This document shows positions 18,425 to 46,908 of a stretch of DNA of 55,633 bases, piece by piece. The notes under the pieces were generated by a model. The model was not told the DNA's origin, did no database searches, and worked only from the letters and a program-made list of their open reading frames with translations. Origin of the DNA: a virus (lineage: Duplodnaviria > Caudoviricetes); the IMG/VR virus record IMGVR_UViG_3300024239_000352, positions 1 through 55,633 of that record; one strand, given 5' to 3'. Both the position numbers and the translations under genes were made by a program. Numbering within the stretch: the first letter of the stretch is position 1; each line of letters opens with the position of its first letter.

Positions 18425-18475
18425 AAGATTACGCTGCTTATACTTGTATGCTTACTAGGCATATAATGCAATAAT

Positions 18476-19138: not shown

Positions 19139-19147
19139 TGTGAGTAG

Positions 19148-20010: not shown

Positions 20011-20011
20011 A

Positions 20012-20083: not shown

Positions 20084-20174
20084 AAAAGATGCGTTAGGGG
20101 GTTACCAAATCTTGAAAGGTGTTTATCATAATTTTGTTGAGGCACTAGAGGTTGCCTAATACAAAGGAGAAAAA

Positions 20175-20525
20175 ATGCTTACAAGATATCATGACACCTT
20201 TCGATCACCAACATTAGATTTGTTTGATTCTTTTGGTCTTTTTAGCGATCTAACTTCTTCTCGTACTCGCAGCGACACCATCGACGATGAAGGTATTAAG
20301 ATAGAAATGCCGGGTGTAAGATCAAACGATCTTGATGTGTCAGTTGAGGGTCGTACGCTTAAGATAGCTGGCAAATCAAGACACGGCAAAGAGTATTCAT
20401 ACACCTACTCTTTACGTAACGTTGTTGATGAGTCTTTGATTGAGGCCAAGTTACAAGATGGCCTGCTTGAGATTAAGCTTCCAAAAAAGCTTGAATCAAA
20501 GGCAAGAAAAATTACTGTCACGTAA
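20175..20525 (+). CDS. Small heat-shock protein (Hsp20)
   Basis: EMPGV..DLDV; AKLQDGLLEIKLPK; C-terminal I-x-V; SD AAGGAG. Confidence 0.92.
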   Translation: MLTRYHDTFRSPTLDLFDSFGLFSDLTSSRTRSDTIDDEGIKIEMPGVRSNDLDVSVEGRTLKIAGKSRHGKEYSYTYSLRNVVDESLIEAKLQDGLLEIKLPKKLESKARKITVT

Positions 20526-22025: not shown

Positions 22026-22460
22026 ATGACTCCCGAAAAAGATGCTTATCTCCGAGGCAAATATCCAAAGATATTCACACGATCTGAACACGAAAAAGAG
22101 CCCATTGACCTGTGGGGTCTTGAATGTGGAGACGGATGGCATGATCTCATAGATTCTCTTTGCAACAAAATACAAAAGCATGTAGACCGCCGAGCTGCAG
22201 CCACCCAAGATGCGGCTGAACTTGAGAACGTGCAAGTCGTCGCTCAGCAGGTCAAGGAAAAATTCGGTGGTCTACGTTTCTATGTTTCAGGTGGAGATGA
22301 CATCACCGATGCCCTCATCTCTTTCGCAGAAACCATGTCCTTCAAGATCTGCGAAACATGCGGAAATTCTGCGACCCAAAAAAACGTAGGCACATGGATA
22401 CACACCTCCTGCGATCCATGCTTTGAAAAACGTGCATGGAGACAAAATGAGAAAGGTTGA
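22026..22460 (+). CDS. Conserved-looking phage protein with C-terminal zinc ribbon
   Basis: ECGDGW; QVKEKFGGLRFY; CETCG..CDPC. Confidence 0.75.
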   Translation: MTPEKDAYLRGKYPKIFTRSEHEKEPIDLWGLECGDGWHDLIDSLCNKIQKHVDRRAAATQDAAELENVQVVAQQVKEKFGGLRFYVSGGDDITDALISFAETMSFKICETCGNSATQKNVGTWIHTSCDPCFEKRAWRQNEKG

Positions 22461-23211
22461 GTTCAAAGATGGAATTGCTATTAATGGCGATAGTACTTCA
22501 ACAGATGTCGTTGAAGAAGTCAAAAAATGGGTAGGTGAAGCGGGCGGCGTACCTCTCATCGCAACCGATCCTCCGTATGGCAACATCGTCATGCAGCATT
22601 GGGATCGGACGAAGATGACCGACGATCAGTACGCCGACTACATGATTGGATGGACCCGACTCTGGTCCGAGGTCCTGCTACAAGGAGGAGCATTCTATGT
22701 CTGGGGAGGTCTTGGACTTCCTAATTTCAGGCCTTTTATCAAATACCTCACACGTGTTGAAGATGATAACTTTAAGATGGCCAATCTCATTACCTGGAGC
22801 AAGAAGCGCGCATATGGAGTCCAGAACAACTATCTCTTTACGCGTGAAGAACTCGCCTACTTCACCAAGGGAAACCCAAAAAAGCCGCTAAAGTTTAACA
22901 TTCCTCTCCTTGAAACCAAACGAGGTTACGCAGGGTACAATGAAAAGTATCCTGCCAAGAGCGAGTTCTACCGTCGAACCAATGTCTGGATGGACATCAA
23001 CGAGATCTTCAAGGGTAAGCTTCATCCCACCCAGAAGGCCGACAGGGTCGTTGAGATCCCTATCGAAGTCCACACAGATCCAGGTGACATCGTCCTCGAT
23101 CCCTTTGCCGGTAGCGGTTCGACTGCATTCGCTGCAAGAAGGTTGAATAGAAAATTTATTGTGATTGAAAAAGATGAAGAGATCTTTGGCAAGATGATTG
23201 AGAGGCTGTAA
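22447..23211 (+). CDS. Orphan N4C/N6A DNA methyltransferase (beta class)
   Basis: DPPY, then HPTQK and DPFAGSG. Confidence 0.92.
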   Translation: MRKVEFKDGIAINGDSTSTDVVEEVKKWVGEAGGVPLIATDPPYGNIVMQHWDRTKMTDDQYADYMIGWTRLWSEVLLQGGAFYVWGGLGLPNFRPFIKYLTRVEDDNFKMANLITWSKKRAYGVQNNYLFTREELAYFTKGNPKKPLKFNIPLLETKRGYAGYNEKYPAKSEFYRRTNVWMDINEIFKGKLHPTQKADRVVEIPIEVHTDPGDIVLDPFAGSGSTAFAARRLNRKFIVIEKDEEIFGKMIERL

Positions 23212-30009: not shown

Positions 30010-31092
30010 ATGAACAGGGCAGTTTGTTTTGACGATGTTCTTTTGGTCCCGCAGTATTCAGAAATTGAATCACGCTCAAGCGTTGATCTGTCAGTTCCTG
30101 GATTTGATACGTCATTTATGAACCTTGTTGAAGGAAAGCCTCATCTTACGTGTCCAATTGTCGGATCACCAATGGACACGGTGATAGGTCCAGTTGCAGC
30201 TGCCGTCCTTGCGGATGTGGGAGGATTCGGTGTCTTGCATCGATATTGCTCGATCGAAGAAACACGCCAGGCGTATCTTGAAACGACATCGATGGGCAAG
30301 ACATCATCAAACAACGTTATGGTGGCGATTGGTGCAACAGGCGATTATCTTGAACGCGCCGCTGCTTTATATTCTGTTGGGTGTCGCGCTTTTTGTGTTG
30401 ATGTTGCACACGGCCATCACGTAAATGTAAAGAATGCGCTTTCCGCTCTTCGATCAAGATTTGGCAAATCTGTTCATATCATGACAGGCAACGTCGCGAC
30501 CCTCGAGGCATTCAACGCATTGGCCGACTGGGGTTCTGATTCGATTCGTGTTGGGGTAGGCGGTGGTTCAATGTGCACGACTCGTGTCAGGACAGGTCAC
30601 GGGATTCCAACGTTGCAATCAGTAATCGATTGCGCAAAGTCGGATCGTGACGTCTACATAATCGCCGATGGAGGCATTCGAAACTCTGGTGACGCAGTGA
30701 AAGCCCTCGCAGCCGGTGCCGACATGGTGATGCTAGGCTCAATCCTTGCAGGCCATGATGAATCCCCAGGTGAGATTGTTGATAAGCGCGGTGTTCCGCA
30801 CAGTCCTAACTGGAAGAATGACATTCCGCTTTTCAAAAAATTTCGAGGAATGGCTTCACGCGAAGCGCAGCTTGAATGGCGTGGAAAGGTTTCCGTTGTT
30901 GAAGGCGATTCAACGCTTGTACCATATAAGGGCTCAATGAGACAAACCCTGATCGAATTGATGGATGGAGTCCGATCAGGGCTATCTTATTCAGGCGCCA
31001 GGACCATTAGAGAACTTCGGGCCAAGGCAAAATTTATTGGCGTTTCTTCAAGCGGTGTTAGAGAAAATGGATCACACGGTAAGAATTCTTGA
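30010..31092 (+). CDS. IMPDH/GMP reductase family enzyme (probably GMP reductase)
   Basis: FDDVLLVP; SPMDTV; DVAHGH; GGSMCTTR; ADGG; RGMAS. No CBS domains and no Arg-Tyr flap dyad. Confidence 0.85.
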
Positions 31093-31757: not shown

Positions 31758-32711
31758 ATGAAATCTATATTAGTGACAGGTGCTGCAGGTTTCATAGGCA
31801 GCTATCTTGTAGAGCATCACTTACAGATAGGCGATAAAGTATATGGAGTTGACAATTTTTGTTCTTCTAGCCCTGTCTCAAGGCATCACAGAAGCGCTGT
31901 TTCTAACAAGAATTATACGTTCAGCAGGCAGGACATAGCATCTTCTGCATTTATTCAAACGCATGCACATCTGTCTTTTGACCTGATCTATAATTTTGCT
32001 TGTCCTGCCTCACCGCCTATCTATCAAAATGTTCCAATTGAAACGATGATGACATGTGTCGTAGGAACAAACAACGCGCTGTCTTTGGCGTCAGCCAAAA
32101 CCGTCTTTGTTCAGGCGTCGACGTCGGAGGTCTACGGCGACCCAATGGTGCATCCTCAACCAGAAGCCTATAGGGGCTGTGTCAACTCATATGGGCCCAG
32201 ATCATGTTATGATGAAGGTAAACGTGCCGCTGAAGCCTTATGCTTTGATCACACACATAAACGAGGCATCGACGCGAGGCTAGTTAGAATATTCAATACG
32301 TACGGCCCTAGGATGGACCCTCACGACGGCAGAGTCATAACAAATATGATTGGCCAAACATTGGCGGGAAAGCCGATGACAATCTACGGAGATGGTTTCC
32401 AGTCACGTTCTTTTTGTTATGTCACTGACATGATTAGAGGCATTCTTGCGTTAGGCAATCTTTCAAGCAATCCGAACACACCTATAAATGTTGGTAACCC
32501 TAGCGAATTTACGATCATTGAATTGGCTGAAAAAATCAAATTAAGATTGGGAGGAAGCATAGAATTTCTTCCTCTTCCAAAAGACGATCCAAAACAACGA
32601 CAACCTGACATAACGCTTGCCAAAAAAATACTGGATTGGGAGCCAAGAATTGACCTAGATATTGGATTGGATCGAATGATCGAGTACATGAGAGCGACCA
32701 ATGACGCATGA
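31758..32711 (+). CDS. NAD-dependent epimerase/dehydratase, UDP-glucuronate decarboxylase-like
   Basis: TGAAGFIG; ACPASP; ASTSEVYGDP; CYDEGKR; RIFNTYGPRM; DDPKQRQPDI. Confidence 0.9.
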   Translation: MKSILVTGAAGFIGSYLVEHHLQIGDKVYGVDNFCSSSPVSRHHRSAVSNKNYTFSRQDIASSAFIQTHAHLSFDLIYNFACPASPPIYQNVPIETMMTCVVGTNNALSLASAKTVFVQASTSEVYGDPMVHPQPEAYRGCVNSYGPRSCYDEGKRAAEALCFDHTHKRGIDARLVRIFNTYGPRMDPHDGRVITNMIGQTLAGKPMTIYGDGFQSRSFCYVTDMIRGILALGNLSSNPNTPINVGNPSEFTIIELAEKIKLRLGGSIEFLPLPKDDPKQRQPDITLAKKILDWEPRIDLDIGLDRMIEYMRATNDA

Positions 32712-33016: not shown

Positions 33017-33847
33017 ATGGATCTAAACGTTGTCCACAGGGGCACAGCCCTTGACTTGCTTTGTTCGATTCCTAATGAATCAATCGATCTTATCTACACC
33101 GATCCTCCGTTCGGCACAGGAAACACACAGACGATGGACCGGAAGAAGGCCGGGAAAACCGTCTCTAAAATTGAGTATAGCGATAAGTACGAGAATTACC
33201 TCGATTTTCTTGAGCCTCACCTGATTGAAATGCACAGGGTTCTGAAACCTACTGGTACCATGTACCTCCACATGGACTGGAGGTGGGTACACTATGCTAA
33301 GGTGATGTGTGATGGAATCTTTGGAATGGAAAACTTCCTCAACGAGGTTGTTTGGTCCTACAACTTTGGTGGACGAGGAAAGGATCGTTGGCCTCAGAAG
33401 CATGACACCATCCTTGTCTACACCAAGGAGATGGGCAAGCACACTTTCAATTGGAAAGATATAGACAGGATTCCATATGCCGCACCAGAGCTACAGTATG
33501 TTGGTAGATCGAGGGAAGAGGCAGAGAAAAGAATAGCTGAAGGTCAGGTTCCAACAGACGTGTGGAGCATGAGCATCGTAGGAACAGCGTCCAAAGAGAG
33601 AATAGGATACCCCAACCAGAAACCAATTAAATTAATGAAGCGTGCAATTGTTGCATCGTCAAATGAAGGAGACATTGTTCTTGATCCTTTTGGAGGGTCG
33701 GGTTCAACAGCGGCCGCGGCTATGGAAGCAAATAGAAAATTCATTACAGGTGATTCAAGCCCAGACGCAATCCAAACAATGCGCAACAGGTTTACAGGGC
33801 TTGACGTAAAATTTATAGAAAGTAAATTAGGAGAAAACAATGGCTAA
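33017..33847 (+). CDS. Orphan N4C/N6A DNA methyltransferase (beta class)
   Basis: IYTDPPF; YPNQKP; DPFGGSG. Confidence 0.92.
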   Translation: MDLNVVHRGTALDLLCSIPNESIDLIYTDPPFGTGNTQTMDRKKAGKTVSKIEYSDKYENYLDFLEPHLIEMHRVLKPTGTMYLHMDWRWVHYAKVMCDGIFGMENFLNEVVWSYNFGGRGKDRWPQKHDTILVYTKEMGKHTFNWKDIDRIPYAAPELQYVGRSREEAEKRIAEGQVPTDVWSMSIVGTASKERIGYPNQKPIKLMKRAIVASSNEGDIVLDPFGGSGSTAAAAMEANRKFITGDSSPDAIQTMRNRFTGLDVKFIESKLGENNG

Positions 33848-34844
33848 AGGTTTAGACGTCGGTACATCATTCATCGTTCTTGCATCTGAGGGTTCAAAGG
33901 GCAAGGTGGTCTACAAGGACTTCCGGGACGCATTCTACGTCCTCAAGCCAACAACACCGATCGCCGCCAAGATGATCGAAAAGGGTTTGGCTGGCAAGAC
34001 ATTTGTCAAGGACACTGATGGTTCATTCATCCTCCTCGGCTCCGACGCAATCGAAAAGGCCGTGGAGAGAAACGACTCGGCGAAGCGTCCAATGTACCGT
34101 GGTGTCGTATCATCCAAGGAAAAGGATGCCCGTCGCATTTTGACATACATCCTCAAGGAGGTCGCAGCCTCACCCTCCGAGCCCGGTGAAAAGCTAGTCT
34201 TCTGCGTCCCTGCTCAACCAATCGATCAAGAAGACGACGATTTCGACGTTGGTTACCATGAGGACGTCATCGTCAAGCTCCTCGCCGAGGTCGGTTACGA
34301 TGCTCGTGCCATCAACGAGGCCGAGGCGCTTTGCTACTCTGAACTCGACAAGGATGACTACACAGGTGTCTGCCTCTCATGGGGCGCAGGTATGGTCAAC
34401 GTCTGCGTCATGCTCAACGGTGAACCTGTGGTCAAGTTCTCCACCACAAAGTCCGGTGATTGGGTCGATCGTATGTCCGCAGTCGCGACAGGTGAGACAG
34501 ATTCAATTGTCCAGGCCGAAAAAGAGTCAGGAGAGTTCACCGTCGGTCAACCCAACGATAACCAGGTCCTCGCCGCTGTGGCAGCCTATTATGAACGTCT
34601 TATCGACTACACTACGAAGCAACTTGCAGCGGCGATGGACGGCCACAAGTCACTTCCAAAATTCAAGGGTGATCTTCCAGTCGTGGTTGCAGGTGGTACA
34701 TCCAAGGCCAAGGGATTCGTCGACATGTTTGCTTCAAAGTTGAAGGACAATGGCTTCCCACTTCCTGTCAAAGAGGTACGCCACGCAGCAGATCCCCTAC
34801 ATGCCGTTGCTCGTGGATGTTTAATCGCAGCCCAGGTGATGTAA
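33840..34844 (+). CDS. Actin-like ATPase, volactin-like
   Basis: GLDVGT (phosphate 1); RPM; VPAQP; INEAEA (connect 1); SWGAGMVN (phosphate 2); VAGGTS (adenosine); DPLHAVARG (connect 2). Confidence 0.85.
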   Translation: MAKGLDVGTSFIVLASEGSKGKVVYKDFRDAFYVLKPTTPIAAKMIEKGLAGKTFVKDTDGSFILLGSDAIEKAVERNDSAKRPMYRGVVSSKEKDARRILTYILKEVAASPSEPGEKLVFCVPAQPIDQEDDDFDVGYHEDVIVKLLAEVGYDARAINEAEALCYSELDKDDYTGVCLSWGAGMVNVCVMLNGEPVVKFSTTKSGDWVDRMSAVATGETDSIVQAEKESGEFTVGQPNDNQVLAAVAAYYERLIDYTTKQLAAAMDGHKSLPKFKGDLPVVVAGGTSKAKGFVDMFASKLKDNGFPLPVKEVRHAADPLHAVARGCLIAAQVM

Positions 34845-34873
34845 AAATTAAAGATTAGGAGTACAATAGCAAC

Positions 34874-35239
34874 ATGGATAAGCTTGAAGAGATGTACAAT
34901 CAGCAGCGGGACTTCAACATTCTGCTTCGTGACGAGAGACAGTATCCAGATTTTCCACTGGATCTTTCTCTGAAAAAGAACCAGCAGATCCTCAAGGGAC
35001 TCGCCCACGAATGCATGCATGAGCTCTTTGAGGCAAATCACCTGCTAAAGAACAGTAAGAACCACCGCGTCACAGACATCAAAGATTTCGATCGTGAATC
35101 CTACAAGGAAGAGCTCGTCGACGCCCTACACTACTTCTTCGGCATTGTAATTTATAGCGGAATTTCGGCCGAAGAACTTCATGAGGCTTTCATGAAGAAA
35201 GGCGCAATCAACGTTCAGCGTGTAAAGAATGGATATTAA
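34874..35239 (+). CDS. All-alpha NTP pyrophosphatase (dimeric dUTPase/MazG-like)
   Basis: HELFEA..K.H; KEELVDALHY; K..IN..R...GY. Confidence 0.8.
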   Translation: MDKLEEMYNQQRDFNILLRDERQYPDFPLDLSLKKNQQILKGLAHECMHELFEANHLLKNSKNHRVTDIKDFDRESYKEELVDALHYFFGIVIYSGISAEELHEAFMKKGAINVQRVKNGY

Positions 35240-35255
35240 ATGTTAGGATAAGAAC

Positions 35256-36203
35256 ATGACAAAGCCTATCGATTGGGCGAATCTGCCTGACGCATTGAAG
35301 CGTCAGGCAGATTTTTCATCCCTATTTTTTGACAACAGCAAGATTAGCCTAGAACAGAAGAAAGAGCTTCTGAAGACTTTCATTCTGTCTTTACATTCAG
35401 AGACGACAGGAATCTGTGAGGCTATCGACTATAAAGAGCATAGGCTTCAGAATAAGCCTGTTGATGTTCAGAAAATTCTTTATAAATCGGTTGATGCATA
35501 TCGCTATATTTTAGCGATGTTGAATCTCTGGGGTATTAGCGCTTCAACATTTGAGATGGCGTTGGCCCAGAAGGACGATTTTCTTCACTATCGATATAGA
35601 CTTTCTCAAAAGAGGTGGGAAGGGCAGCCCGTCGTACTGTTTGACATGGATGATGTCCTTGCTGAATTTAGGAAATCGTTCTGCGGGTATGTCACCGCGT
35701 TGACAGATCACTTCATCGATCCCGAAAGCGATGAGTACTACAACGTTAGGGAGTTCAAGAGACTAAACATCAATAGCGAAAATTTCTTCAAGAAATTCAT
35801 CGACGGACACGGATTTCTGTTGCTTGAAAGGAACGACCAGTACTTTAATTTACTTCAGCATTTAAAGTCCCAGGGCTACTGGATTCAGATTGTGACGGCC
35901 CGCCCTGAAACAAATCTGACGTGCTTTTATGACACTTACTCCTGGCTGGCCCGCCACGGTGTCGATGCCGATGGCGTTGCATTCACACCTGAAAAATTCG
36001 TCTGGTTGTCTGAACAGCCTTTTTACGCAAGGGGCAGGTACTTTGCTGTAGATGATTCAGCGAAGCATGCTGCCGAGTATGCCAAACACGGCGTCGTCAC
36101 GATTGTGCCTGAAAAACCTTATAACAAAGAGGTTAACGGGGTAAACAACGTTGTGTATGTTCCGCGGAACGCGAATCCTGTAGAATTCATTCCAGTTTTA
36201 TAA
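35256..36203 (+). CDS. Degenerate dNTP-PPase-like domain fused to a HAD 5'-nucleotidase-like domain
   Basis: N-terminal ILYKSVDAYRY replaces EELVD; C-terminal FDMDDVL, IVTAR, K, VDDS HAD motifs. Confidence 0.75.
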   Translation: MTKPIDWANLPDALKRQADFSSLFFDNSKISLEQKKELLKTFILSLHSETTGICEAIDYKEHRLQNKPVDVQKILYKSVDAYRYILAMLNLWGISASTFEMALAQKDDFLHYRYRLSQKRWEGQPVVLFDMDDVLAEFRKSFCGYVTALTDHFIDPESDEYYNVREFKRLNINSENFFKKFIDGHGFLLLERNDQYFNLLQHLKSQGYWIQIVTARPETNLTCFYDTYSWLARHGVDADGVAFTPEKFVWLSEQPFYARGRYFAVDDSAKHAAEYAKHGVVTIVPEKPYNKEVNGVNNVVYVPRNANPVEFIPVL

Positions 36204-36206
36204 TAA

Positions 36207-36236
36207 GTGTAAATTTGTTCCCAACAAGGATAAAGT
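36207..36236 (+). promoter_or_regulatory. Sigma70-like promoter for the ThyX paralogue
   Basis: GTGTAA-N18-TAAAGT, then SD GAGGT before ATG 36253. Confidence 0.5.
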
Positions 36237-36252
36237 CATTCGAGGTATCAAA

Positions 36253-37182
36253 ATGTCAACAATCAAGAACGGTTTTGGTGGAATCAAGGTAACTTTGCTG
36301 GACGCGGGCAATCCTAAGCCCTTTGAGATGTTTTGGAACTGGTATCGTGAGACATGGTACTCGTTGCGAAATCAAGAGTTTGATCCAAACGATCACAAGC
36401 ACATCGAGGCTGCGAAGGAGGTCGTCGATGGTAAGGCACTTCCTGTTCCTCAGGAAGCACTTAACTTTCAGATTCGTGTCGAGGGCTTGAGCCGTGTAGC
36501 CCTTGCTCAGTTCACTCGCGGCCGTGTTGGCTGGGCATACTGCGTCACTTCGCAGATGCCTGAGAAGGTGGACCACGACGTCATCGTTCCAATGAACATC
36601 TATGAATCTGAGTTTGGCGACGATGCTAGAAAGCTTGTCGAGGATTCGCAGCGACTCTACGACAAGATGGTGGCTGCCGGCGTTCCACCACAGGATTGTC
36701 GATACCTTCTTATTCATGGTCAGACGACGAACTTGGCATGCGTCGTCAACTTCATGGCCCTTCGTGGCTACTTTGGTCGACGATGTGAGAACGGTCTGAC
36801 CGATGAGCTCAACCTGATCGGTCGGCTTATCCTGCATGAGCTGCGGCAGGCTCACCTGAACGCTGACGGTACCGACAAGGTCCATGGATCAGGTTGGTCT
36901 TACCTGATGACGAAGCTTGAGGCGATGGGCGCCGACAAGGTCTGTCTCAACAACGACAAGGTCTTCGGCAACACGGGTCGATCGCCTTCAGCCGGCGACT
37001 GGGTTCCATCGACTGTCAACGAGAAGAATCCATGTGACTGGAGGTTCGATAAGTCAGCTTGGTTCTTTGAGCTACAGAAGCTGCCGGCACACCTGCTCTT
37101 CCCAGGAGAGAAGGAGATGATTCAGGACTGGCAGACGATTGGCTTCGATGGTCGACTTCGTAAGGTCGGAACGAAGAAGTAA
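36253..37182 (+). CDS. Divergent ThyX-fold protein (second paralogue)
   Basis: FQIRVEGLSR..QFTRGR....SQMP; GVPPQDCRYLL..TN; NFMAL..YF.RR. Signature residues are altered. Confidence 0.78.
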   Translation: MSTIKNGFGGIKVTLLDAGNPKPFEMFWNWYRETWYSLRNQEFDPNDHKHIEAAKEVVDGKALPVPQEALNFQIRVEGLSRVALAQFTRGRVGWAYCVTSQMPEKVDHDVIVPMNIYESEFGDDARKLVEDSQRLYDKMVAAGVPPQDCRYLLIHGQTTNLACVVNFMALRGYFGRRCENGLTDELNLIGRLILHELRQAHLNADGTDKVHGSGWSYLMTKLEAMGADKVCLNNDKVFGNTGRSPSAGDWVPSTVNEKNPCDWRFDKSAWFFELQKLPAHLLFPGEKEMIQDWQTIGFDGRLRKVGTKK

Positions 37183-37187
37183 AGATT

Positions 37188-37251
37188 TTTGGACGGTCTT
37201 GACTAGTTTGAATATGTATTTACATGAAAAGAAAATTCAAGACCGTCCAAA
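37188..37251 (+). promoter_or_regulatory. 15-bp perfect inverted repeat enclosing the homing-endonuclease start codon
   Basis: TTTGGACGGTCTTGA (37188-37202) and TCAAGACCGTCCAAA (37237-37251); ATG 37224 and ATATGTA/TATTTA lie in the loop. Confidence 0.75.
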
Positions 37252-38051
37252 TCACTTGTGAACAATGTGGGAAAATATCTTTAAAACAAAAAGGCCGCCG
37301 ATTTTGTAATACGTCTTGCGCGAATAAATGGTTGCATGCCCATGGCAAACTGAGCGCAAAAGCAATCATTGGAATGAATATGTCGTTGGAATCGCTGATT
37401 CAGCGATATGGAGATCTGTTAGGTCTTCAAAAATACGAAGAATTCATTAAAATAATGAGTGCTGCCACATCTGGGCAGAAAAATCCAATGTATGGTAAAA
37501 ATTACCAAACACATGGATTAAAAAAAGAGGGTGAAAAAAGAAGAGGAAAAACTGAAGTTGAACACTACGGTTTAGAGAAAGCGAAAGAAATTTCAAAGAA
37601 AAAGTCAGAAGCTTCATCTGGAAAAAACAACTCCATGTATGGTAAGCCCTCACCGAAATTATCGGGTAAAGGAACCAAAGGCTACTATAAAGGACATTAC
37701 TTTAGAAGTTTATTAGAGCTTTTGTGTATGAAACACTTAGAAGAAGATGGAATAGATCTAAATGACATCGATTATGAAAATTTTGTGATAAAATATGTTT
37801 CTTACGATGGTCGTCAAAGGACATATAGACCTGATTTTTTTATTCCAAGCAGAAATCAATTAGTTGAGGTAAAACCTTTTAGATTGATTTCTACCCCCTT
37901 GAATACACTTAAGTTCGAAGCTGCTCTTTCTTTTTGTAAAGAAAGAAACATTGAGTTTAAAGTTTTGACAGAAAAGTCTTTTACTTTATCAAAAGAAGAC
38001 GCAGTAAAAGATCAGAATGTCGTTCTTTTGGAGGCAAAAAATGAGAAATAA
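37224..38051 (+). mobile_element. Free-standing homing endonuclease (NUMOD3-like repeats plus PD-(D/E)xK nuclease)
   Basis: CEQC..FCNTSC; GQKNPMYGK and GKNNSMYGK; FRSLLE; YRPDF; VEVKP; AT-rich. Confidence 0.8.
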
Positions 38052-38587
38052 TGAGGTATTGGCCCGTCAGAAGATTATTATCTTCGACGGGCCAGATTGA
38101 AGGGTGTGGCAAAACACACATGGCAAAGGAGCTTGCCAAAATTACTAATATCGCTTACTTTAAAAATATTGACGAACACAAGTACTTTCTCAGCGATCCA
38201 AACTACTTCATCAACGCCATCAGGTATGTCGACACGTACTTCACATCTTACTTGGAGGCGTCAGGTGCGTCGATCATTCTCGATCGTGCCTGGCCTTCTG
38301 AGTGGATCTACAGCAAGGCCGTCGGTCGTTCAACAGATCTTGAGGTTCTAAAGGATCTCGATAGGCGGCATGCTCGCTTAGGAACAAAGCTGATTATTCC
38401 ATGGCGATCCGACTATACAAAGGTGAAGGATGACTACGATGTCGTCAACCAAAAAATCAATTTAATTCATGACTTGTATCACGAATTTGCAAATTCATGG
38501 ACACAATGTGATGTCTTATTGTTGAACGTAGACAACGAAGATTTGAACGAAGAAATGCAACAAATTACAGGATTTATCAACACATGA
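38041..38587 (+). CDS. Deoxynucleotide monophosphate kinase with a 4-nt interruption (TGAA) in the P-loop
   Basis: SD GGAGG at 38030; MRNNEVLARQKIIIFDGPD-TGA-A-GCGKT..; ILDRAWPSEWIYS. Confidence 0.75.
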
Positions 38588-39144
38588 ATAGAATTACAAA
38601 AGACATTGGACCGTATGTAAAGGTCACATTTAAGCGCCAATTACCCTACTCAATTCCTGGTCAATGTGTCAAGCTCGACGGAAAGTGGTTCGCAATTTAC
38701 GAAGTCAATCCAGGTGATTTTAGTATCTTGGTCAACAAGAATTCACATTATGCTGAAAATGACCCTCAGGAAATTTCAGAACCCCTGGGAGAAGGTTTTA
38801 CAGCCTCGCTGTGCAAACGTGCCATTGTCGTAGGAGGAGGCACAGGAATTGGCGCCGTCATGCCGGTCATCAAGAACAGAAATCGGCATGGTCTTTCAAC
38901 TGATGTGATTTTTTATACCCGAGGCGACATTTCTCCCATTAGGTTGGATCAGGCTACCATTGGTATGTGCAGGAATGTAATTTTCTGGGACACGACAAAA
39001 CAAGGTCGTCCTTCGACGCCGCTGGAGCCTCTTGTCGATAAGCAGGCTGAATCGACCATCTTCGTCGCAGGCCCAAAGTCACTTGTTACAGCGACTGAAG
39101 AGGCAGCTCGCAACTACAATTTTGATTGTTACACTAATTTTTGA
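38584..39144 (+). CDS. FNR-family NAD(P)H/flavin oxidoreductase
   Basis: PGQ; PLGEGF; VGGGTGI; FVAGP; terminal aromatic residue (TNF). Confidence 0.75.
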   Translation: MNRITKDIGPYVKVTFKRQLPYSIPGQCVKLDGKWFAIYEVNPGDFSILVNKNSHYAENDPQEISEPLGEGFTASLCKRAIVVGGGTGIGAVMPVIKNRNRHGLSTDVIFYTRGDISPIRLDQATIGMCRNVIFWDTTKQGRPSTPLEPLVDKQAESTIFVAGPKSLVTATEEAARNYNFDCYTNF

Positions 39145-39163
39145 AAAGTACATAAGTACTTTT
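39144..39163. promoter_or_regulatory. Palindrome, candidate operator
   Basis: AAAAGTAC-ATAA-GTACTTTT directly upstream of a small RHH-like gene. Confidence 0.5.
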
Positions 39164-39182
39164 GAACCTGAAAGAGATACAT

Positions 39183-39353
39183 ATGACCATGAAACAATCG
39201 AAGATCTCGTTAAATGAAGAGACTCATCGAATGCTGAAGGTGTACTGTGCGAAGCACGGATTATTGATGAGTCAATTCGTTTCGGAGATCATTCGAGAGA
39301 GGATTGGCTATGTGGACGACAAAAACGGTTCAGGAGATGCCGACAACCCCTAA
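39183..39353 (+). CDS. Small ribbon-helix-helix-like DNA-binding protein
   Basis: SKISLNEETHRMLKVYCAKHGLLMSQFVSEIIRE. Confidence 0.65.
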   Translation: MTMKQSKISLNEETHRMLKVYCAKHGLLMSQFVSEIIRERIGYVDDKNGSGDADNP

Positions 39354-39969
39354 ACTGATGGGGATCTATCAAATCACTAATATAGTCAACGGGAAAAGGT
39401 ATATTGGAAAAAGCAAGAATATACGTAGGCGGTGGATGGAGCACATTCGCAATAATCGAATAGGAAATTCAGTTAATAAACACTTCCAATGTGCTTGGAC
39501 CATGTATGGTGAAGATAAATTTTTATTTGAAGTTCTTGAACAAATCCAAGATGAAGCTCAGCTTGGATTGAGAGAAAAGATTCTTGTAGAAGAGAAAATG
39601 CCTGAGTATAATGTCTCTATTGTAGACGAAGGTCAATGGACTTTAACAAACGAAAAAATTGAGAAATGTCGACAAATTAGACTTAATGCTGATCCTTCTT
39701 GGAACAAGAAGATAGGTAATTCTCTTCGTGGAAAAAAGAAAAGTGACGAACATGTAAGTAAGATGCGAAAAAGTCTTACTGGAAGGAAAGCAACCCCTGA
39801 ACAGATCGAGAAAATTCGTAAGGCTTCAACAGGTCGACTTGTTTCTGAGGATGCAAAAAAGAAAATTGCAGACAAGGCAAAAGGAAATCAAAGATGGAAG
39901 CTTCGAACGCCACAGTGGCGGGAGAACATGATTGCAGGCGTCAAGAAAAGATGGGAAAGGTACAGAAAA
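39337..39969 (+). mobile_element. GIY-YIG homing endonuclease with NUMOD3-like repeats, in frame with the downstream NDT gene
   Basis: GIYQITNIVNGKRYIG..RW..H; FEVLE; YN; SDEHVSKMRKS..G repeats; no stop before 39970. Confidence 0.85.
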
Positions 39970-40446
39970 ATGAAAAATGAAAATACTTTTGGTAAAAAAC
40001 TTGCATGCTATCTCGCTAGCGGTTGGTTTTCGCCCGATCAGGACAAGCAGCTGACAAAGCTCGAAAATGTATTTGACAGTCGAGCTGAGTGGATCTCTTT
40101 GGCTTCGCCACGAAGGATCTTCGTCTGCCCACCAGACGCATCCCTGGAGGTCCAAGACAGCGTCTTCAACGGCAATGTTGAGCACATCAAGAAGGCAGAT
40201 TTCTGTCTCGTCAACACGACATATCGTGATATCGGTACGATTTGGGAGGCTGGCGCTGCATATGCCTATGGCACAAAGATCGTTTACTTCTGCGAAAATC
40301 TTCCACCTGGTGCAAAGTTCAATTTGATGCTTAGTAGAAGCGGCATCAAGGTTTGCACTACATTCGAACAGCTCGAGGACTACCTTGAAAGGTGCAAGGC
40401 TGCCGGTGAGATGTTGTACGAACCCTACGACAAGGAAATTGAGTGA
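39970..40446 (+). CDS. Nucleoside 2-deoxyribosyltransferase / nucleotide N-hydrolase (NDT/RCL/MilB-like)
   Basis: YLASGWFS; N..HI..AD; DIGTIWEAGAAYA; FNLML; own ATG at 39970. Confidence 0.82.
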   Translation: MKNENTFGKKLACYLASGWFSPDQDKQLTKLENVFDSRAEWISLASPRRIFVCPPDASLEVQDSVFNGNVEHIKKADFCLVNTTYRDIGTIWEAGAAYAYGTKIVYFCENLPPGAKFNLMLSRSGIKVCTTFEQLEDYLERCKAAGEMLYEPYDKEIE

Positions 40447-40472
40447 GCTAATTCATAGCTAAAATAACTTCG

Positions 40473-40502
40473 AAGGCCATTGTGAAAATCGATGGCCTTT
40501 TT
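40473..40502 (+). terminator. Rho-independent terminator
   Basis: AAGGCCATTG..CGATGGCCTT followed by a T run. Confidence 0.7.
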
Positions 40503-40526
40503 AGCATTTGTATATATGTATTTTTC

Positions 40527-41447
40527 ATGGACACAATAGATACACCAAAAATTGTATGCGAGATTTGCAATACTGCATTTACACACAAGAACACACAGAT
40601 AAGAACGTGCAGTAAAAAATGCAGTTATGAACTGAGAAATAAAACAAGACATCATGTAAAGCATGAACCTGTTCAAAAGAAATGTATTGAATGTCTTGAA
40701 ACCTTCCAAGACTATAGTAAAAAGAAGTTAGTGATCAAATGCCAAAATTGTGTTTATGCAAACATGGCATCAAAAAGAAAACAGAATGGAAGTTATCATC
40801 AAACAGACGAAAGAAAATTACAGCAAAGCCTGCTGATGAAACGTCTTCATCAGGAAAGAGATTTTATCTCTGATGAAGGCATACGTCAATTGTCAGAGAA
40901 AGCTAAAAGCAGGTGGCAGTCAGATGATTATAGGTCGAGTGTCAAGAAACGCAGCCTAGAGAAATATGGCGTAGAGCATTGGACGAAAACTGAAGAGGCC
41001 AGGAAACAACTCAGCGAAAGATCAAAAAAATATAGGGCCTCAGATGAAACGAAGCAGAAGATGAGGGTTAGTGCTGCTAAACGCCTACGTGAAGGTCGTA
41101 ATTTGCACCCATTCCACGGTAAGGGTGGGTACAGACAAGACATTGATCTTTACGTAAGAAGCAGATGGGAGGCTAACTTTGCGAGATATTTGCTTTTGAC
41201 GAATCAAAAATTTGAGTATGAAAAAGTGAGTTTTTCGCTTCGAGATGGAAGAACATATACACCTGATTTCAAAGTTGAAAATATGCTGTATGAAATCAAA
41301 GGATGGTGGACACAAGCTGCAAAAGAAAAATTTGAAATCTTTAAGGAAGATTATCCCGAAGCCGTCGTGCAAATAATAGACGAGGCAAGGTACAATCAGA
41401 TCCAGGATCAGTATGCTGCTTTGATTCCAAACTGGGAATATAAATGA
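40527..41447 (+). mobile_element. Free-standing homing endonuclease (zinc fingers, NUMOD3-like, PD-(D/E)xK)
   Basis: CEIC..CSKKC; CIEC..CQNC; RSRWEANFA; YTPDF; EIKG; ATGA overlap with dnaE. Confidence 0.8.
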
Positions 41448-44400
41448 CCAACATTCTTAGGCCACCTGCGCAGTTCATCAGCCTTCACTCGCACTCACAT
41501 TTCAGTACTTATGATGGGTTAGGGCAACCATCAGATCACATTGATTTTTGTGTCCAAAATGGATTGTCAGGTTGGTCTCTTACCGACCATGGCAACGGCA
41601 ACGGATTGGCCCATGCTCACGCTCACGCCAAGAAGATCATCAAGTCGAAGGGGCACAAGTTTAGGCAACTCTACGGTGTTGAGTTCTACTTCGTTCCTGA
41701 CTTGGCCGATTGGAAGATCAGGTACGACCTCTCCAAGAAAGAGGACTCGAAGAAGGGCGACGATGAAGAAGAAGCAGGCCTGGTCGTTGAGGACGCTGAT
41801 GAGACACGTTCCGACGGAGATCGATTCGTCGATGTCAACAAGCGTTACCACCTTGTGGTTGTCGCAAAGAACAGTGTAGGTCTTTCCAACCTGTTCACTC
41901 TCGTCAAGAAGAGCTACGTCGACGGTTTCTACAAGTTTCCTCGAATCGACTTCAAACTTCTCAAAGAACACGGCGAAGGCCTTGTTGTCTCGACTGCATG
42001 CGTCGGTGGCTATCCCAGCGGCGTCATCTACAGCGAGTTTGGCGACAAGAAGTTCGCCGAGCTTGATCCTTCGCTGGTCGACGACGAAGTCGTGAGGAAC
42101 AGGATCAGAAACAAGCTGGAGAACGTCGTCGATCGCTTCGTCGATTGTGTTGGACACGAAAACTTCTTCCTGGAGCTTCAGTTCAACAAGCTGCCTGCCC
42201 AGGACCTGACCAACAGGATGATGATCGAGACGGCGGCATCAACGGGTTGTAAGCTTCTTTCCACCGCAGACTCACACTATCCAGAACCTGCCCTGTGGGA
42301 GGCCAGGGAGATCTATCGGCAGCTGCAACCTGGTCGCATGAAGATTGGTGTAGAGCCTAAGCCTCTTCCTAAGTTTGAGGAGCTGAAGTGTGAGCTGTAT
42401 CCGAAGAACGCTCAGCAGATGTGGGACGAATATCTAGGCCGTCGCGAAGCCTATGATTGGTACAAAGGAACAGAAGACGCCGTCCGCACCTCCATGGAGA
42501 ATGGCCACGATATCGCCTGGAACCTTTGTGAGGAGATCTGGTTCGACACTTCGGCCAAGCTTCCTACCTTCGGAACACCTGAAAAATCAGGTTTCAAACA
42601 ACTCGTTGACCTCGTCAAGGAAGGTTTGGTCGCTGAGGGTCTCGACAAGAAGCCTGACTACGTTGCCCGTGCCAAGATGGAGTTGGACGACATCAAGTAC
42701 CTGAAGTCTGAGGACTACTTCTTGACCCTGCAGAAGGTGTTCAAGCTGGCCGAAAATCGAACGTTGCCAGGTTCAGGTCGTGGCTCAGGCGCCGGTTCGC
42801 TTGTCAACTACCTGCTAGGCATTACCCACGTCGATCCCCTCAAGTATGACCTGCTGTGGGAAAGGTTCATGGGGCGGCACAGGGTCGGATATCCCGATAT
42901 CGACACAGACGTCGGTGACCGTGACAAGCTGATCGAAGCAGCCAGAGAAATCTTCGGCAATGACGCTGTCGTCCCGGTTTCCAACTTCAATACCTTGAAG
43001 CTGAAGTCGCTCGTCAAGGACGTCTCCAAGTTTTACGGAGTTCCTTTCGATGAGGTCAACGCTGTCACAGGCCCACTCGAGCGTGAAGTGGAGCAGAAGT
43101 CGCGTGATCCCAACATGGAAAAGTCCATGTTCGTCCTGAAGCACGAGGACTGCATGGAGCACTCCGAGAACTATAGGAACTTCATGGAAAAGTATCCTCA
43201 GGTCGAAGAGAAGATCAGGACGTTATTCATGATGAACCGCTCAGTCGGCCGCCATGCCGGTGGTGTCCTGATCTGTCCTCAGCTCGAGAAGCACATGCCT
43301 CTCATCACTGTTCGAGGTGAGCTTCAGACACCATGGACCGAAGGTGTCAACATTCGAAATCTTGAGGAGAACGGATTCCTCAAGTTCGACTTCCTCGGCA
43401 TCAAGCAGATGAAGATGGTGGAGGATTGCATCGCCCGAATCCTGAAGCGCGAGCTGGGTCGTGAGCCGATCTTCGAAGAGATCAAGAAGTTCTACGATGA
43501 GAAGCTCAACTGTCGATACGTCGAACCGAACGACGACAAGGTCCTGAACCACGTCTATCGCAGCAATCGATGGCCAGGCATCTTCCAGTTCACATCTGAA
43601 GGCGCCCGGAAGTTCTGTCACGAGGTCCAGCCGACATCGATCGAGGACATCGGTGTCGTCACGGCAATCTATCGTCCAGGTCCACTCAAGGCCAACGTTC
43701 ACAAGAAATACGTCGAAGCAAAGAAGGACGCATCCAAGGCACAGTACGATCACCCGACCATCAAGGATGTCCTTGGCACGACCTACGGGTTCATTGCCTT
43801 CCAGGAGCAATTCATGATGTTGGCACAGAAGCTCGCCGGATTCTCACCAGGTGAATCCGACAAGATGCGCAAGACTCTTGTCAAGAAGGACCTGACGTCC
43901 CTTGGCAAGAAGTCCGAAGAGAAAGAGGCATTGGAAAAGAAGTTCATCGATGGCTGCATCACAGTCAGCGGCATGGAAAGGTTCAAGGCGAAGGAGCTGT
44001 TCGACAAGATCGCGTTCTTCTCGTTGTATGGTTTCAACAAGTCCCACGCAATTGCCTACGCAATCGATTCGTACTACGGCGCCTGGTTGATGACCTACTA
44101 TGAGACCGATTGGTTGGCAACATGCCTTCAGTCTGAAAATGCCAACGTTGAAGGCCTGGCATGGATGATCTCCGAGATCAAGCAACTTGGCTACAAGACG
44201 TCGACGCCTGACATCAACCACTCTACGAACGAATGGACGTGGTCCGAGAAGCTTCACGCTTTCGTCCCGCCCCTGTCTTCGCTGAAGGGAGTCGGTGAGT
44301 CAGCCGTCGAGGAGATCATTGCAAATCGTCCATACAAGTCGATCGAGGACATGTTGTGGACGCCGGATGGCGTGTGGCGCCACTCCAAGTTCAACAAGAA

Positions 44401-44965
44401 GGCCATCGATGCCCTGCTGAAGATGGAGGCCTTTGAGTCATTGAGGGATCCTGAAACGTGTATCTGGGGCAACTACAGACAGCTCCACTTTGCAATCGTT
44501 GAAAACATGGATACCATCAAAAAATCCACAAAAAAAGATCCGCTGTCTGGTCAGAAGAAATTCTTTGAATTATTGGAGTCGTCACGAGAGATGCCCGATT
44601 GGACCCGTATTGAGAAGATTGAGAATAAGATTTCTTGCTCCGGCACGATGGACATTAGCATGTGTGTTGAGTATGATATACTGCAACGTTTGCAGAACAA
44701 GGGAATTAGGTCTCTTGACGAGATTGATGGAACAGATATTTACTGGTTTGTCGTAAAGAACTCCATTCCAAAGACGACAAAGAATGGAAAGGCATACCTG
44801 CTGTTGGAGGCATTGAGTCCTTCAGGCAAGGTTTCAAAGATCTTCTGTTGGAAATGGGATGGAGAACGGCAGATTGTGCCTTACACGCTGTGTTTGGCTG
44901 AGGTTTCTAAGTCTGACTTTGGAATGTCCACTACATTTTGGAAATTGAATGAGGTTGATCAATGA
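41444..44965 (+). CDS. dnaE: DNA polymerase III alpha subunit (family C)
   Basis: PHP motifs HSHS..DG, TDHG, GVE, ADSHY; GRGSGAGS; PDIDTD; LKFDFLG; FQEQ; FNKSHA. Confidence 0.95.
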   Translation: MTNILRPPAQFISLHSHSHFSTYDGLGQPSDHIDFCVQNGLSGWSLTDHGNGNGLAHAHAHAKKIIKSKGHKFRQLYGVEFYFVPDLADWKIRYDLSKKEDSKKGDDEEEAGLVVEDADETRSDGDRFVDVNKRYHLVVVAKNSVGLSNLFTLVKKSYVDGFYKFPRIDFKLLKEHGEGLVVSTACVGGYPSGVIYSEFGDKKFAELDPSLVDDEVVRNRIRNKLENVVDRFVDCVGHENFFLELQFNKLPAQDLTNRMMIETAASTGCKLLSTADSHYPEPALWEAREIYRQLQPGRMKIGVEPKPLPKFEELKCELYPKNAQQMWDEYLGRREAYDWYKGTEDAVRTSMENGHDIAWNLCEEIWFDTSAKLPTFGTPEKSGFKQLVDLVKEGLVAEGLDKKPDYVARAKMELDDIKYLKSEDYFLTLQKVFKLAENRTLPGSGRGSGAGSLVNYLLGITHVDPLKYDLLWERFMGRHRVGYPDIDTDVGDRDKLIEAAREIFGNDAVVPVSNFNTLKLKSLVKDVSKFYGVPFDEVNAVTGPLEREVEQKSRDPNMEKSMFVLKHEDCMEHSENYRNFMEKYPQVEEKIRTLFMMNRSVGRHAGGVLICPQLEKHMPLITVRGELQTPWTEGVNIRNLEENGFLKFDFLGIKQMKMVEDCIARILKRELGREPIFEEIKKFYDEKLNCRYVEPNDDKVLNHVYRSNRWPGIFQFTSEGARKFCHEVQPTSIEDIGVVTAIYRPGPLKANVHKKYVEAKKDASKAQYDHPTIKDVLGTTYGFIAFQEQFMMLAQKLAGFSPGESDKMRKTLVKKDLTSLGKKSEEKEALEKKFIDGCITVSGMERFKAKELFDKIAFFSLYGFNKSHAIAYAIDSYYGAWLMTYYETDWLATCLQSENANVEGLAWMISEIKQLGYKTSTPDINHSTNEWTWSEKLHAFVPPLSSLKGVGESAVEEIIANRPYKSIEDMLWTPDGVWRHSKFNKKAIDALLKMEAFESLRDPETCIWGNYRQLHFAIVENMDTIKKSTKKDPLSGQKKFFELLESSREMPDWTRIEKIENKISCSGTMDISMCVEYDILQRLQNKGIRSLDEIDGTDIYWFVVKNSIPKTTKNGKAYLLLEALSPSGKVSKIFCWKWDGERQIVPYTLCLAEVSKSDFGMSTTFWKLNEVDQ

Positions 44966-45754: not shown

Positions 45755-45949
45755 ATGCCGACGTATGAGTATGAGTGCAAGTCATGTAGTCATCAACTTG
45801 AGGCGGAGCAATCGATCAACGATGACCCTCTTGTGACCTGCCCACAATGCCATGCTGATTTCTTGAGAAGATTGATCAGCAGATCTTCGTTTGTGTTGAA
45901 AGGTTCAGGCTGGGCGGCAGACAATTATTCTTCAACGGGTGCAAAATGA
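45755..45949 (+). CDS. FmdB-family zinc-ribbon protein
   Basis: MPTYEYECKSC..CPQC..RLIS..FVLKGSGW. Confidence 0.88.
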   Translation: MPTYEYECKSCSHQLEAEQSINDDPLVTCPQCHADFLRRLISRSSFVLKGSGWAADNYSSTGAK

Positions 45950-46908
45950 GAATACTAGTGACAGGCGGTGCTGGCTTCATTGGAAGCAACTTTGTCAAGA
46001 AGTGTGTCGAAATTAATCATTGCGTCGATGTAGTCGACAATCTTTCGAATGGACATGTCAACTTTGTGCCTAGTTGTTTGAGGCAAGACAACTTTTTTAT
46101 TAGTTCATTTGATTCCGATGGTGTTTTGCAAAGAATTAGAGAAAAAAATTATGATGTTGTTGTTCATCTAGCCGCTGTTCCTCGTGTCAGCTATTCTGTT
46201 GAATATCCATTTGAAACCCATGAAACGAACGTGACTGCGACATTACGTTTATTAGAAGCATGTCGAGGTAACATCAAGAGGTTTGTATTCGCTTCATCTT
46301 CGTCAGTGTACGGCGGCGCCGATGTTTTGCCAACACCTGTTACAGCAAAGAAGGATCCAAAATCACCTTATGCCTTACAGAAGTCTATTGTAGAAGATTA
46401 TTTGAAACTATACAACGATCTTTATGGATTAGATTCTGTTTCTTTACGTTTTTTTAATGTTTTTGGTCCAAATCAGTTAGGCGATTCACCTTATGCGACA
46501 GCAGTGTCTTCATGGCTAAATGCAATTATGCGAGGACAATCAATGAGGTCTGATGGAGATGGTTCACAATCACGTGACATGTGTTACGTTGACAATGTTG
46601 TCGACGCGTGTTTACGTTCATGTGTAGCCAACTCCAGCCTAGGGGCCCTCGCCCTCAACATTGCGTGCGGTGACAGAACGACGAACAAAGAAATCTTGCA
46701 ATATTTATTGAATAAATTTCCTCATGCAAAATATCATGATGCTCCGTGGAGAGCTGGTGATGTCATGCATACCCAGGCAGATATTTCTTTGACAGAAAAC
46801 GTTTTAGGATACAAGCCTCTTGTAAGATTCTGGGAGGGGTTAGACAAGACGATACGATGGCATGAAGAAAATTGGGAAGAAATTTTATCATTATCTGAAA
46901 ACACATAA
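45946..46908 (+). CDS. NAD-dependent NDP-sugar epimerase (GalE/WbpP-like)
   Basis: TGGAGFIG; ASSSSVYG; SPYALQK; LRFFNVFGP; RAGDV. Confidence 0.9.
   Translation: MRILVTGGAGFIGSNFVKKCVEINHCVDVVDNLSNGHVNFVPSCLRQDNFFISSFDSDGVLQRIREKNYDVVVHLAAVPRVSYSVEYPFETHETNVTATLRLLEACRGNIKRFVFASSSSVYGGADVLPTPVTAKKDPKSPYALQKSIVEDYLKLYNDLYGLDSVSLRFFNVFGPNQLGDSPYATAVSSWLNAIMRGQSMRSDGDGSQSRDMCYVDNVVDACLRSCVANSSLGALALNIACGDRTTNKEILQYLLNKFPHAKYHDAPWRAGDVMHTQADISLTENVLGYKPLVRFWEGLDKTIRWHEENWEEILSLSENT

Follow-up and report, generated by a model that had tools for sequence, protein, structure and literature searches.

The flavin-dependent thymidylate synthase ThyX (FDTS; EC 2.1.1.148) is considered here through the T. 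maritima enzyme TM0449 (Protein Data Bank (PDB) entry 1o26). ThyX enzymes are homotetramers that bind flavin adenine dinucleotide (FAD), have their active sites between subunits and convert deoxyuridine monophosphate (dUMP) to dTMP with methylenetetrahydrofolate and NADPH. In this enzyme family R174 activates dUMP, and S88, R90 and Y91 promote methylene transfer from a flavin carbinolamine; the Y91A mutant is >100-fold slower at the methylene step (excerpted text of PMC8316439). In the literature that we searched, the only repurposed ThyX paralogue was PolB (PMC5003785, PMC5954106), a UMP/dUMP C5-methylase of Streptomyces cacaoi (4p5a/4p5b), and no role of the ThyX fold was found beyond thymidylate synthesis and the UMP methylation by PolB. 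PolB shares 38% identity with T. maritima ThyX, has retained its catalytic residues and still methylates with FAD, NADPH and methylenetetrahydrofolate. The equivalents Arg98, Ser96 and Arg166, together with residues of the Q75 region, hold the phosphate in place, with Arg98 additionally contacting O4 (excerpted text of PMC5003785). Here we analyse a second ThyX-fold gene from the IMG/VR virus record IMGVR_UViG_3300024239_000352 (55,633 nucleotides; hereafter the window), the product of which we call the rewired ThyX; the same DNA encodes a canonical ThyX (Table 1). The locus resembles the PolB case, in which an additional gene of the ThyX fold accompanies a normal thyX and has taken on a new nucleotide job (PMC5003785, excerpt).

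A second group of relevant systems is built on the ThyA fold: the T4 dCMP hydroxymethylase gp42, the dUMP hydroxymethylases and the 5-hydroxy-dCMP synthases of RB69, DLP3 and RL38J1 (excerpts of PMC13326640 and PMC8989533). The 5-hydroxy-dCMP synthases bind flavin and need deoxynucleoside monophosphate (dNMP) kinases; in the gene tables of their phages, the locus tag of a Tmk-like kinase is two or three places away from that of the synthase (DLP3_078/080, RB69p045/048, RL38J1_214/216), and a dCTPase is encoded at p028 of RB69 (PMC13326640, excerpt). The locus described below shares their pathway logic and gene set, i.e. a thymidylate synthase paralogue, a dedicated kinase and a nucleoside triphosphate (NTP) pyrophosphatase beside a true thymidylate synthase, as with gp42, gp1 and gp56 of T4, but the fold of its synthase-like protein is unrelated. 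To our knowledge, all phage pathways for modified pyrimidine precursors in print run via ThyA-fold paralogues.

From conserved residues, structural models and gene content, we propose that the rewired ThyX is a neofunctionalised flavoenzyme that would make a non-thymine pyrimidine dNMP for phage DNA and no longer thymidylate. We give this reading a probability of roughly 55%. At 55.6 kb, the window covers part of the genome of an uncultured virus, and CheckV estimates it to be 17% complete. Since a near-complete relative (G002; 93% complete) measures 318 kb, the window phage is taken to be a jumbo phage.

The predicted fold is that of ThyX

Residues 65–200 of the rewired ThyX matched the Pfam family Thy1 (PF02511) with 66.3 bits (E 3.9e-18), above the cut-off of 24.8; Thy1 was the only match in Pfam, with none to Thymidylat_synt (PF00303). 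The NCBIfam thyX equivalog TIGR02170 gave 41.8 bits, which fails the cut-off of 87.9 passed by the canonical copy (106 bits). AlphaFold2, run on 28 members of the family, gave a model with a predicted local distance difference test score (pLDDT) of 90.6 and a predicted template modelling score (pTM) of 0.89. With Foldseek against the PDB, the best matches of this model were ThyX entries and PolB (E 6.6e-9 to 1e-7, ~15% identity), with template modelling (TM) scores on the target of 0.64–0.75. The VIA aligner superposed the model on T. maritima ThyX 1o26 with Z 14.3, a root-mean-square deviation of 2.7 Å and 202 of 218 residues aligned, and on PolB with Z 14.0. In all, 47 ThyX/PolB entries had Z of at least 11, and the next-ranked entry had Z 2.0. 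The predicted fold is thus that of ThyX, as the original prediction, made from the letters and open reading frames (ORFs) alone, had supposed.

The PDB sequence searches were weak or blank, so that the ThyX identity is settled by the fold search. A single-protein phmmer search of the PDB did not find ThyX; the family profile reached ThyX only at E 1e-3, ranked under spurious repeat matches to designed PPR proteins; and hhalign of the rewired family against a single canonical sequence gave no match. In the ESM Atlas the whole protein matched Thy1 clusters only. The only full-length matches in a viral structure library were two proteins, both from uncultured phages (39% identity with TM 0.84, and 20% identity with TM 0.76).

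Fixed substitutions and a conserved C-terminal extension

Conservation was counted in an alignment of the best 120 of 149 homologues (E <= 1e-3, word-index search), which are 44–93% identical. Most of these are complete, at about 290–340 amino acids (aa), and ~10 are shorter fragments. All are metagenomic and are unnamed, called 'hypothetical protein' or, in three cases, 'thymidylate synthase ThyX'; the last label is probably wrong.

In alignments of the two window copies, GHETPFE of the canonical protein becomes ALPVPQE in the rewired protein, KHR becomes RGR, SARY becomes SQMP, NFRSFYHF..LR becomes NFMALRGYF..RR and HAQLEIR becomes GLTDELN. The signature is therefore RGR-x8-SQMP, compared with RHR-x7/8-S-x-R-Y in ThyX. 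These are the changes listed in the original prediction, and all are present, except that the window's own canonical copy has KHR and not RHR. The new states are close to invariant: L63 in 113/116 (I in the other three), P64 in 115/116, G90 in 113/117, Q101 in 116/117, M102 in 119/119, P103 in 118/119, G181 in 118/119 and T183 in 117/119. Among the retained residues, E68, R89, R91 and S100 were each found in 117/117, and R150, R177 and E185 in 119/119. Judged from this alignment, the replaced positions are as fixed as the retained ones, and the substitutions, which the homologues conserve, are not chance drift. There are also new invariant polar residues: H108 and H155 (118/119 each), D148, E179 and D184 (119/119 each) and, in the C-terminal part, R243, E273 and E286 (120/120 each).

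Residues were placed on the T. maritima structure by aligning the canonical copy to its chain, which carries 12 extra N-terminal residues, and then aligning the two window copies. With this offset of 12, the T. maritima H, RHR, S-G-R-Y, R and R are residues 53, 78–80, 88–91, 147 and 174. The kept positions (T. maritima = rewired) are Q75 = Q86, R78 = R89, R80 = R91, S88 = S100, R147 = R150, N163 = N166, R174 = R177 and E182 = E185, each present in 117–119 of 117–119 family members. In contrast to ThyX, the positions H53 (to L), R74 (to A), H79 (to G), R90 (to M), Y91 (to P) and H178 (to G) are changed and fixed, and N169 and Q180 are replaced by G and T, respectively. R165 has become M or A, variably across the family, and the position of E86 is T in the window protein and E in 43/117 relatives. 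We take H53, of the HETPFE motif, to have a folate-stacking role. PolB numbers were taken as T. maritima numbers plus 8 in the stretch compared (R90 = Arg98). PolB needs Arg98 and Tyr99 (PMC5003785, excerpt), the equivalents of which in the rewired protein are M102 and P103. On this mapping, the nucleotide-holding and base-activating frame of ThyX appears kept and the folate and methylene-transfer apparatus removed, with fixed polar residues and a C-terminal part that are new.

The C-terminal extension, put at roughly 100 aa in the original prediction, runs for ~105 aa beyond the end of the Pfam match, making the protein 89 aa longer than the canonical copy. Its invariant residues are D235, G239, G242, R243, F265, S268, E273, L282, E286 and M289. 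Searched alone in the ESM Atlas, it matched only a low-scoring fragment cluster from the same family.

Purifying selection and codon usage

The ratio of nonsynonymous to synonymous substitution rates (dN/dS, or ω) was estimated by the Nei–Gojobori method for 15 genes, that of the window and those of 14 related loci; L006 and L017, which duplicate the ORF tables of L005 and L007, were excluded, as was L012, which a contig end truncates. In the 15 of 105 pairs that had dS below 2 and were used, dN/dS was 0.058–0.157 with a median of 0.096, and the value was 0.083 for the core and 0.102 for the extension. By this measure the gene is under strong purifying selection over its entire length, the extension being equally constrained, and it is maintained rather than decaying, as had been claimed.

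The G+C content at third codon positions (GC3) of the rewired gene is 0.613, rank 2 of the 72 window ORFs, close to dnaE (0.659), the actin-like gene (0.588) and recA (0.550), whereas the canonical thyX (0.335, rank 66 of 72) and tmk (0.322) are AT-rich. The contrast that had been drawn by eye thus holds when calculated per gene. Its interpretation as a sign of high expression is not supported, since the two copies have similar GC3 in the four relatives that carry both (0.117/0.138, 0.775/0.752, 0.468/0.516 and 0.530/0.536). The contrast is therefore peculiar to the window phage and stems from an AT-rich thyX–tmk block. GC3 and conservation of window genes were not significantly correlated (Spearman 0.37, p 0.10, n = 21). 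Among 20 runs listed as carrying this DNA, none was an RNA run.

This block, at 18092..20525, contains the canonical thyX and tmk and three small ORFs, with a G+C content (GC) of 0.37–0.40 and GC3 of 0.32–0.34, against a window GC of 0.45. Related phages differ greatly from one another in their canonical ThyX genes. This divergence suggests that cassettes have been swapped repeatedly, and the block is probably a recently exchanged one. An AT-rich, exchanged cassette better explains the GC3 contrast than high expression of the second copy.

An old viral lineage that coexists with ThyX

A profile search of the full library returned 1624 proteins at E <= 1e-3, canonical ThyX included, of which 308 had E <= 1e-10; at E <= 1e-30 there were 24 clusters (50% identity). 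The tree had 67 rows: 16 rewired proteins in two subclades, 26 other histidine-less ThyX-like proteins and 25 canonical ThyX. The branch of the rewired clade had a support of 99 in the Shimodaira–Hasegawa-like approximate likelihood ratio test (SH-aLRT), and all 42 non-canonical proteins were separated from the 25 canonical ones, also at 99. Constraining the window protein to join the phage's own thyX cost 54 log-likelihood units (p 0.024 in the approximately unbiased (AU) test), the group having been chosen after the tree was seen. The second rewired subclade keeps S80, R81, Q86, R89, S100, R150, R177, D184, E185, E273 and E286 and has not kept R91, M102 and P103. A DNA-level match was not found, a pattern scan of 185,579 species genomes returned no relatives, none of the 41 matching GenBank phage records covered 80% of the rewired protein, and no description of the family was found in the literature searched. 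As far as sequence comparison can tell, the rewired ThyX is an old, virus-only lineage and not a recent duplicate.

The sister clade (proteins P0148–P0266) is larger. Its members are ThyX-fold proteins of 270–350 aa without the signature histidines, unnamed or automatically named, with RTR, RQR or RAR motifs, and with GGRDNDW or KDNDL where S.RY stands in ThyX.

The canonical copy of the window matches PDB ThyX entries directly (E 6e-13). Whole-record searches of five large relatives found canonical ThyX (129–162 bits) together with the rewired protein (59–70 bits) in four; the record of the fifth, in which canonical ThyX was not found, is only 28% complete. Counting the window, the two stand side by side in five of six records. 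ThyA (PF00303) was found in none of the five large relatives, which further sets the locus apart from the ThyA-fold modifiers. By gene content, the rewired ThyX is an addition to canonical ThyX and not a replacement.

A kinase and nucleotide-pool enzymes adjoin the gene

Seventeen related viral loci were compared gene by gene, 16 of which (14 distinct) have DNA downstream of the rewired gene. The features of the window are collected in Table 1.

Table 1. Positions of the rewired gene, its neighbours and the canonical thyX–tmk pair in the window
Feature	Position	Strand	Extent and basis
Rewired ThyX-fold protein	36253..37182	+	309 aa; Pfam Thy1, AlphaFold2 model, Foldseek/VIA, family invariants, dN/dS
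ThyX core	36253..36867	+	about residues 1–205
Conserved C-terminal extension	36868..37179	+	about residues 206–309
Canonical ThyX	18476..19138	+	220 aa; Pfam Thy1 E 2.2e-36, 125.9 bits; TIGR02170 106 bits
Canonical tmk	19148..19753		adjoins canonical thyX; Pfam E 1.9e-13
Stand-alone all-alpha NTP pyrophosphatase (MazG/dimeric-dUTPase type)	34874..35239	+	Pfam dUTPase_2 E 1.1e-6; PHROG 12184 E 5e-13
Pyrophosphatase–nucleotidase fusion	35256..36203	+	all-alpha NTP-pyrophosphatase-like four-helix domain (~1–120) and HAD 5'(3')-deoxyribonucleotidase
Free-standing homing endonuclease	37224..38051	+	Pfam Tn7_TnsA-like_N E 6.5e-11, NUMOD3, Phage_endo_I; GC 0.34
Small P-loop nucleotide kinase, Tmk/dNK type	38051..38587	+	PHROG 761, Pfam Thymidylate_kin, PDB profile, GKT and DR motifs
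Short FNR/PyrK-like NAD(P)H-flavin reductase-like protein	38584..39144	+	186 aa; NCBIfam, PDB profile, motifs
GIY-YIG homing endonuclease (residues 19–102) and nucleoside 2-deoxyribosyltransferase/DNPH1-type domain (236–340) in one frame	39304..40446	+	

The constant partner is the kinase, a homologue of which lies downstream of the rewired gene in 16/16 loci, mostly abutting or overlapping its stop codon. The kinase has a match to PHROG 761 ('thymidylate kinase', E 1.3e-5), and 10 of 15 family members have one to Pfam Thymidylate_kin, the best at E 2e-7. In a PDB profile search Tmk 5xbh came first (E 6.8e-4), with YorR at 0.017, and the GKT and DR motifs are invariant in the family. The window kinase and that of locus L010 have a variant N-terminus before the P-loop, ..RLLS[SL]TGQI..CGKT (window 38051..38120; L010:11880-11960); the other 13 members have a hydrophobic first strand, ..IIIxDGPDxCGKT.

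In the window, a homing endonuclease gene sits between the rewired gene and the kinase, and the same insertion is present in L010 and L018. Contigs of X5 and X6, two lake or freshwater runs from different studies, join 37186 to 38026, with 839 bases absent, and represent the endonuclease-less allele. The endonuclease is no part of the pathway. The idea that it caused the variant kinase N-terminus was not supported: L018 has the endonuclease and a normal N-terminus, and the endonuclease-less X5 contig aligns from 38026 onward.

The gene after the kinase in the window, present in 7/16 loci, encodes a reductase-like protein with GPxGxGF, GGTGIGA and AGPK motifs. It matches NCBIfam PRK06222 (E 2.9e-7) as well as PyrK-type and LuxG models; in the PDB profile search the best match was PyrK (9e-5), and FNR-superfamily reductases made up most of the 30 matches listed. 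Two-component flavin-dependent systems consist of an oxygenase and a Fre/LuxG-type reductase. This short FNR/LuxG/PyrK-like gene recalls them, with the difference that it is not constant in the rewired module; we know of no ThyX-fold protein for which oxygenase chemistry has been shown.

Three further genes concern the nucleotide pool. A homologue of the stand-alone pyrophosphatase, which lies upstream in the window and for which PHROG 12184 gives 'nucleotide pyrophosphohydrolase', is in the flank of 10/17 loci. The fusion protein, in 11/17 loci, matches Pfam NT5C (E 1.6e-6). In its AlphaFold2 model (pLDDT 91.4) the C-terminal half takes the 5'(3')-deoxyribonucleotidase fold, and the deoxyribonucleotidases 3bwv, 4mum and 1mh9 are the top Foldseek matches. 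Its N-terminal domain gave no Pfam or PDB sequence match; it is taken to be related to the stand-alone enzyme because its family hidden Markov model matches MazG-like ORFs at E 1e-5 to 1e-10. The transferase-like gene, found in 12/17 loci, matches Pfam GIY-YIG (E 2.9e-11) and Nuc_deoxyrib_tr (E 5.7e-11) and the N-deoxyribosyltransferase 6evs in the PDB (E 1.8e-11). Locus L004 shares the long endonuclease–transferase form (392 aa); in the other relatives that bear the gene, the transferase-like domain stands alone, at 144–156 aa.

Proposed function and alternatives

In the pathway that we propose, the rewired enzyme would still bind a pyrimidine dNMP in the old ThyX pocket, where the arginines that contact sugar and phosphate remain in place, as does the one that activates the base. 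The residues for folate-dependent methylene transfer would have been lost and ~105 conserved residues gained. Most likely, the enzyme would either use a flavin to attach a group other than methyl to C5 or take a cytosine nucleotide as its substrate in place of a uracil one. Retention of the R174 equivalent would favour a uracil ring as substrate, whereas cytosine would fit the loss of the arginine that contacts O4 and the gain of the acidic residues E179 and D184. The adjoining Tmk-like kinase would then phosphorylate the product en route to phage DNA, the NTP pyrophosphatase, the pyrophosphatase–nucleotidase fusion and the deoxyribosyltransferase-like protein would clear the competing normal nucleotide, perhaps with a glycosidase involved, and the reductase, where present, may provide reduced flavin. 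The gene set and the anatomy of the protein suggest that the phage DNA may contain a modified base. We suggest only tentatively the broader claim that the virus-only clade and its histidine-less sister clade make an undescribed pyrimidine deoxynucleotide (e.g. a 5-hydroxy or other non-methyl C5 product of folate-free flavin chemistry) that partly or fully replaces a normal DNA base.

Several observations weigh against the proposed pathway. Flavin binding is uncertain: H79, R165, N169 and H178, which are among the FAD contacts of T. maritima ThyX, are changed. The kinase–Tmk match is weak, and the best kinase families of the window copy are AAA_28 (E 0.01) and dNK (0.063). The reductase is absent from the whole of G002 and thus not essential; given this absence and its presence in only 7/16 loci, it is an accessory part of the module. 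Finally, thyX, tmk, tdk and dCMP deaminase are all kept by the window phage, and they do not indicate which base, if any, is replaced.

The loss of several catalytic residues, with retention of the fold and of the oligomer-forming scaffold, would also fit a ThyX-fold protein that is non-catalytic and either senses or sequesters nucleotides or acts on host ThyX as an inhibitor or poison subunit. However, the replaced positions are themselves invariant, ω is about 0.1 and the kinase linkage is constant. The new invariant polar residues (H108, D148, H155, E179, D184, R243, E273 and E286) form the pattern of a rebuilt rather than a relaxed active site, and we consider a non-catalytic role unlikely.

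A second dUMP-to-dTMP enzyme with altered cofactor handling, through a partner reductase or another one-carbon donor, would account for the ThyX fold, the passing Thy1 match and the kept S88, R147 and R174 equivalents. The difficulty is that R90 and Y91 have become an invariant M and P, the latter at the position where Y91A is so much slower (PMC8316439, excerpt), and that H53 is replaced by L. The protein also fails the TIGR02170 cut-off, coexists with a canonical ThyX in most of the records and has its own kinase despite the canonical tmk, all of which makes continued thymidylate synthesis improbable. Least probable of all, and very doubtful, is action on a pyrimidine within a polymer (phage DNA or tRNA) in the manner of TrmFO rather than on a free mononucleotide: two of the arginines that clamp a free 5'-phosphate (R74 and R90) are lost (PMC5003785, excerpt) and the large extension could bind nucleic acid, but neither Pfam nor the ESM Atlas detected a nucleic-acid-binding domain in it, and the linked genes encode free-nucleotide enzymes (kinase, NTP pyrophosphatase and 5'-nucleotidase).

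The rewired family is large and strongly constrained, and its sister clade is larger still. Its pocket has been rebuilt, and it is accompanied by a kinase of its own and by enzymes that would clear the pool. This makes it a concrete candidate for new nucleotide chemistry, perhaps for a new DNA base in abundant uncultured phages. If the broader claim for the two clades is correct, this would be the first DNA-modification pathway on a ThyX scaffold, corresponding in the ThyX fold to what T4 gp42 and the 5-hydroxy-dCMP synthases are in the ThyA fold, and jumbo phages of freshwater and the subsurface would carry the modified base in their DNA. Any such base would have consequences for how restriction and CRISPR targeting act on these phages and for how they are sequenced. 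The family is also informative about the ways in which flavin-dependent methylene transfer can be put to new use.

Other genes of the window

Nearly all window genes lie on the + strand. They include a bacterial-type RecA, a DnaE polymerase, a DnaB-like helicase, gp32, ribonucleotide reductase and peptidoglycan hydrolases, together with a long series of nucleotide-metabolism genes. Scans of 33800..41500 gave 7 promoter-like sites (12.1 expected) and 9 terminator-like sites (6.7 expected), neither of which was usable. Upstream of the rewired gene lies an actin-like gene of the Volactin family (33840..34844; Pfam PF25216, E 1.2e-64), 89% identical in locus L003, in a phage whose RecA, DnaE and peptidoglycan hydrolases point to a bacterial host.

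Two NDP-sugar epimerase/dehydratase genes (31758..32711 and 45946..46908) lie on either side of the replication and nucleotide region, and the second comes after dnaE in several relatives (L006, L007, L008, L017 and L018); no glycosyltransferase was detected in the window. A GMP-reductase/IMPDH-family gene (30010..31092; Pfam E 5e-87) and, farther along the window, carbon-nitrogen hydrolase and pterin-4a-carbinolamine dehydratase genes (52296..53437) are unusual auxiliary genes for a phage. There are also two N6/N4 DNA methyltransferase genes, at 22423..23211 and 33017..33847 (Pfam N6_N4_Mtase, E 2.5e-34 and 9.5e-50). In three related loci dnaE is in two or three pieces with intervening ORFs, i.e. 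inteins or endonuclease insertions (L004:13382-19806, L008:12596-17422 and L019:13191-16895); the dnaE of the window (41444..44965) is undivided.

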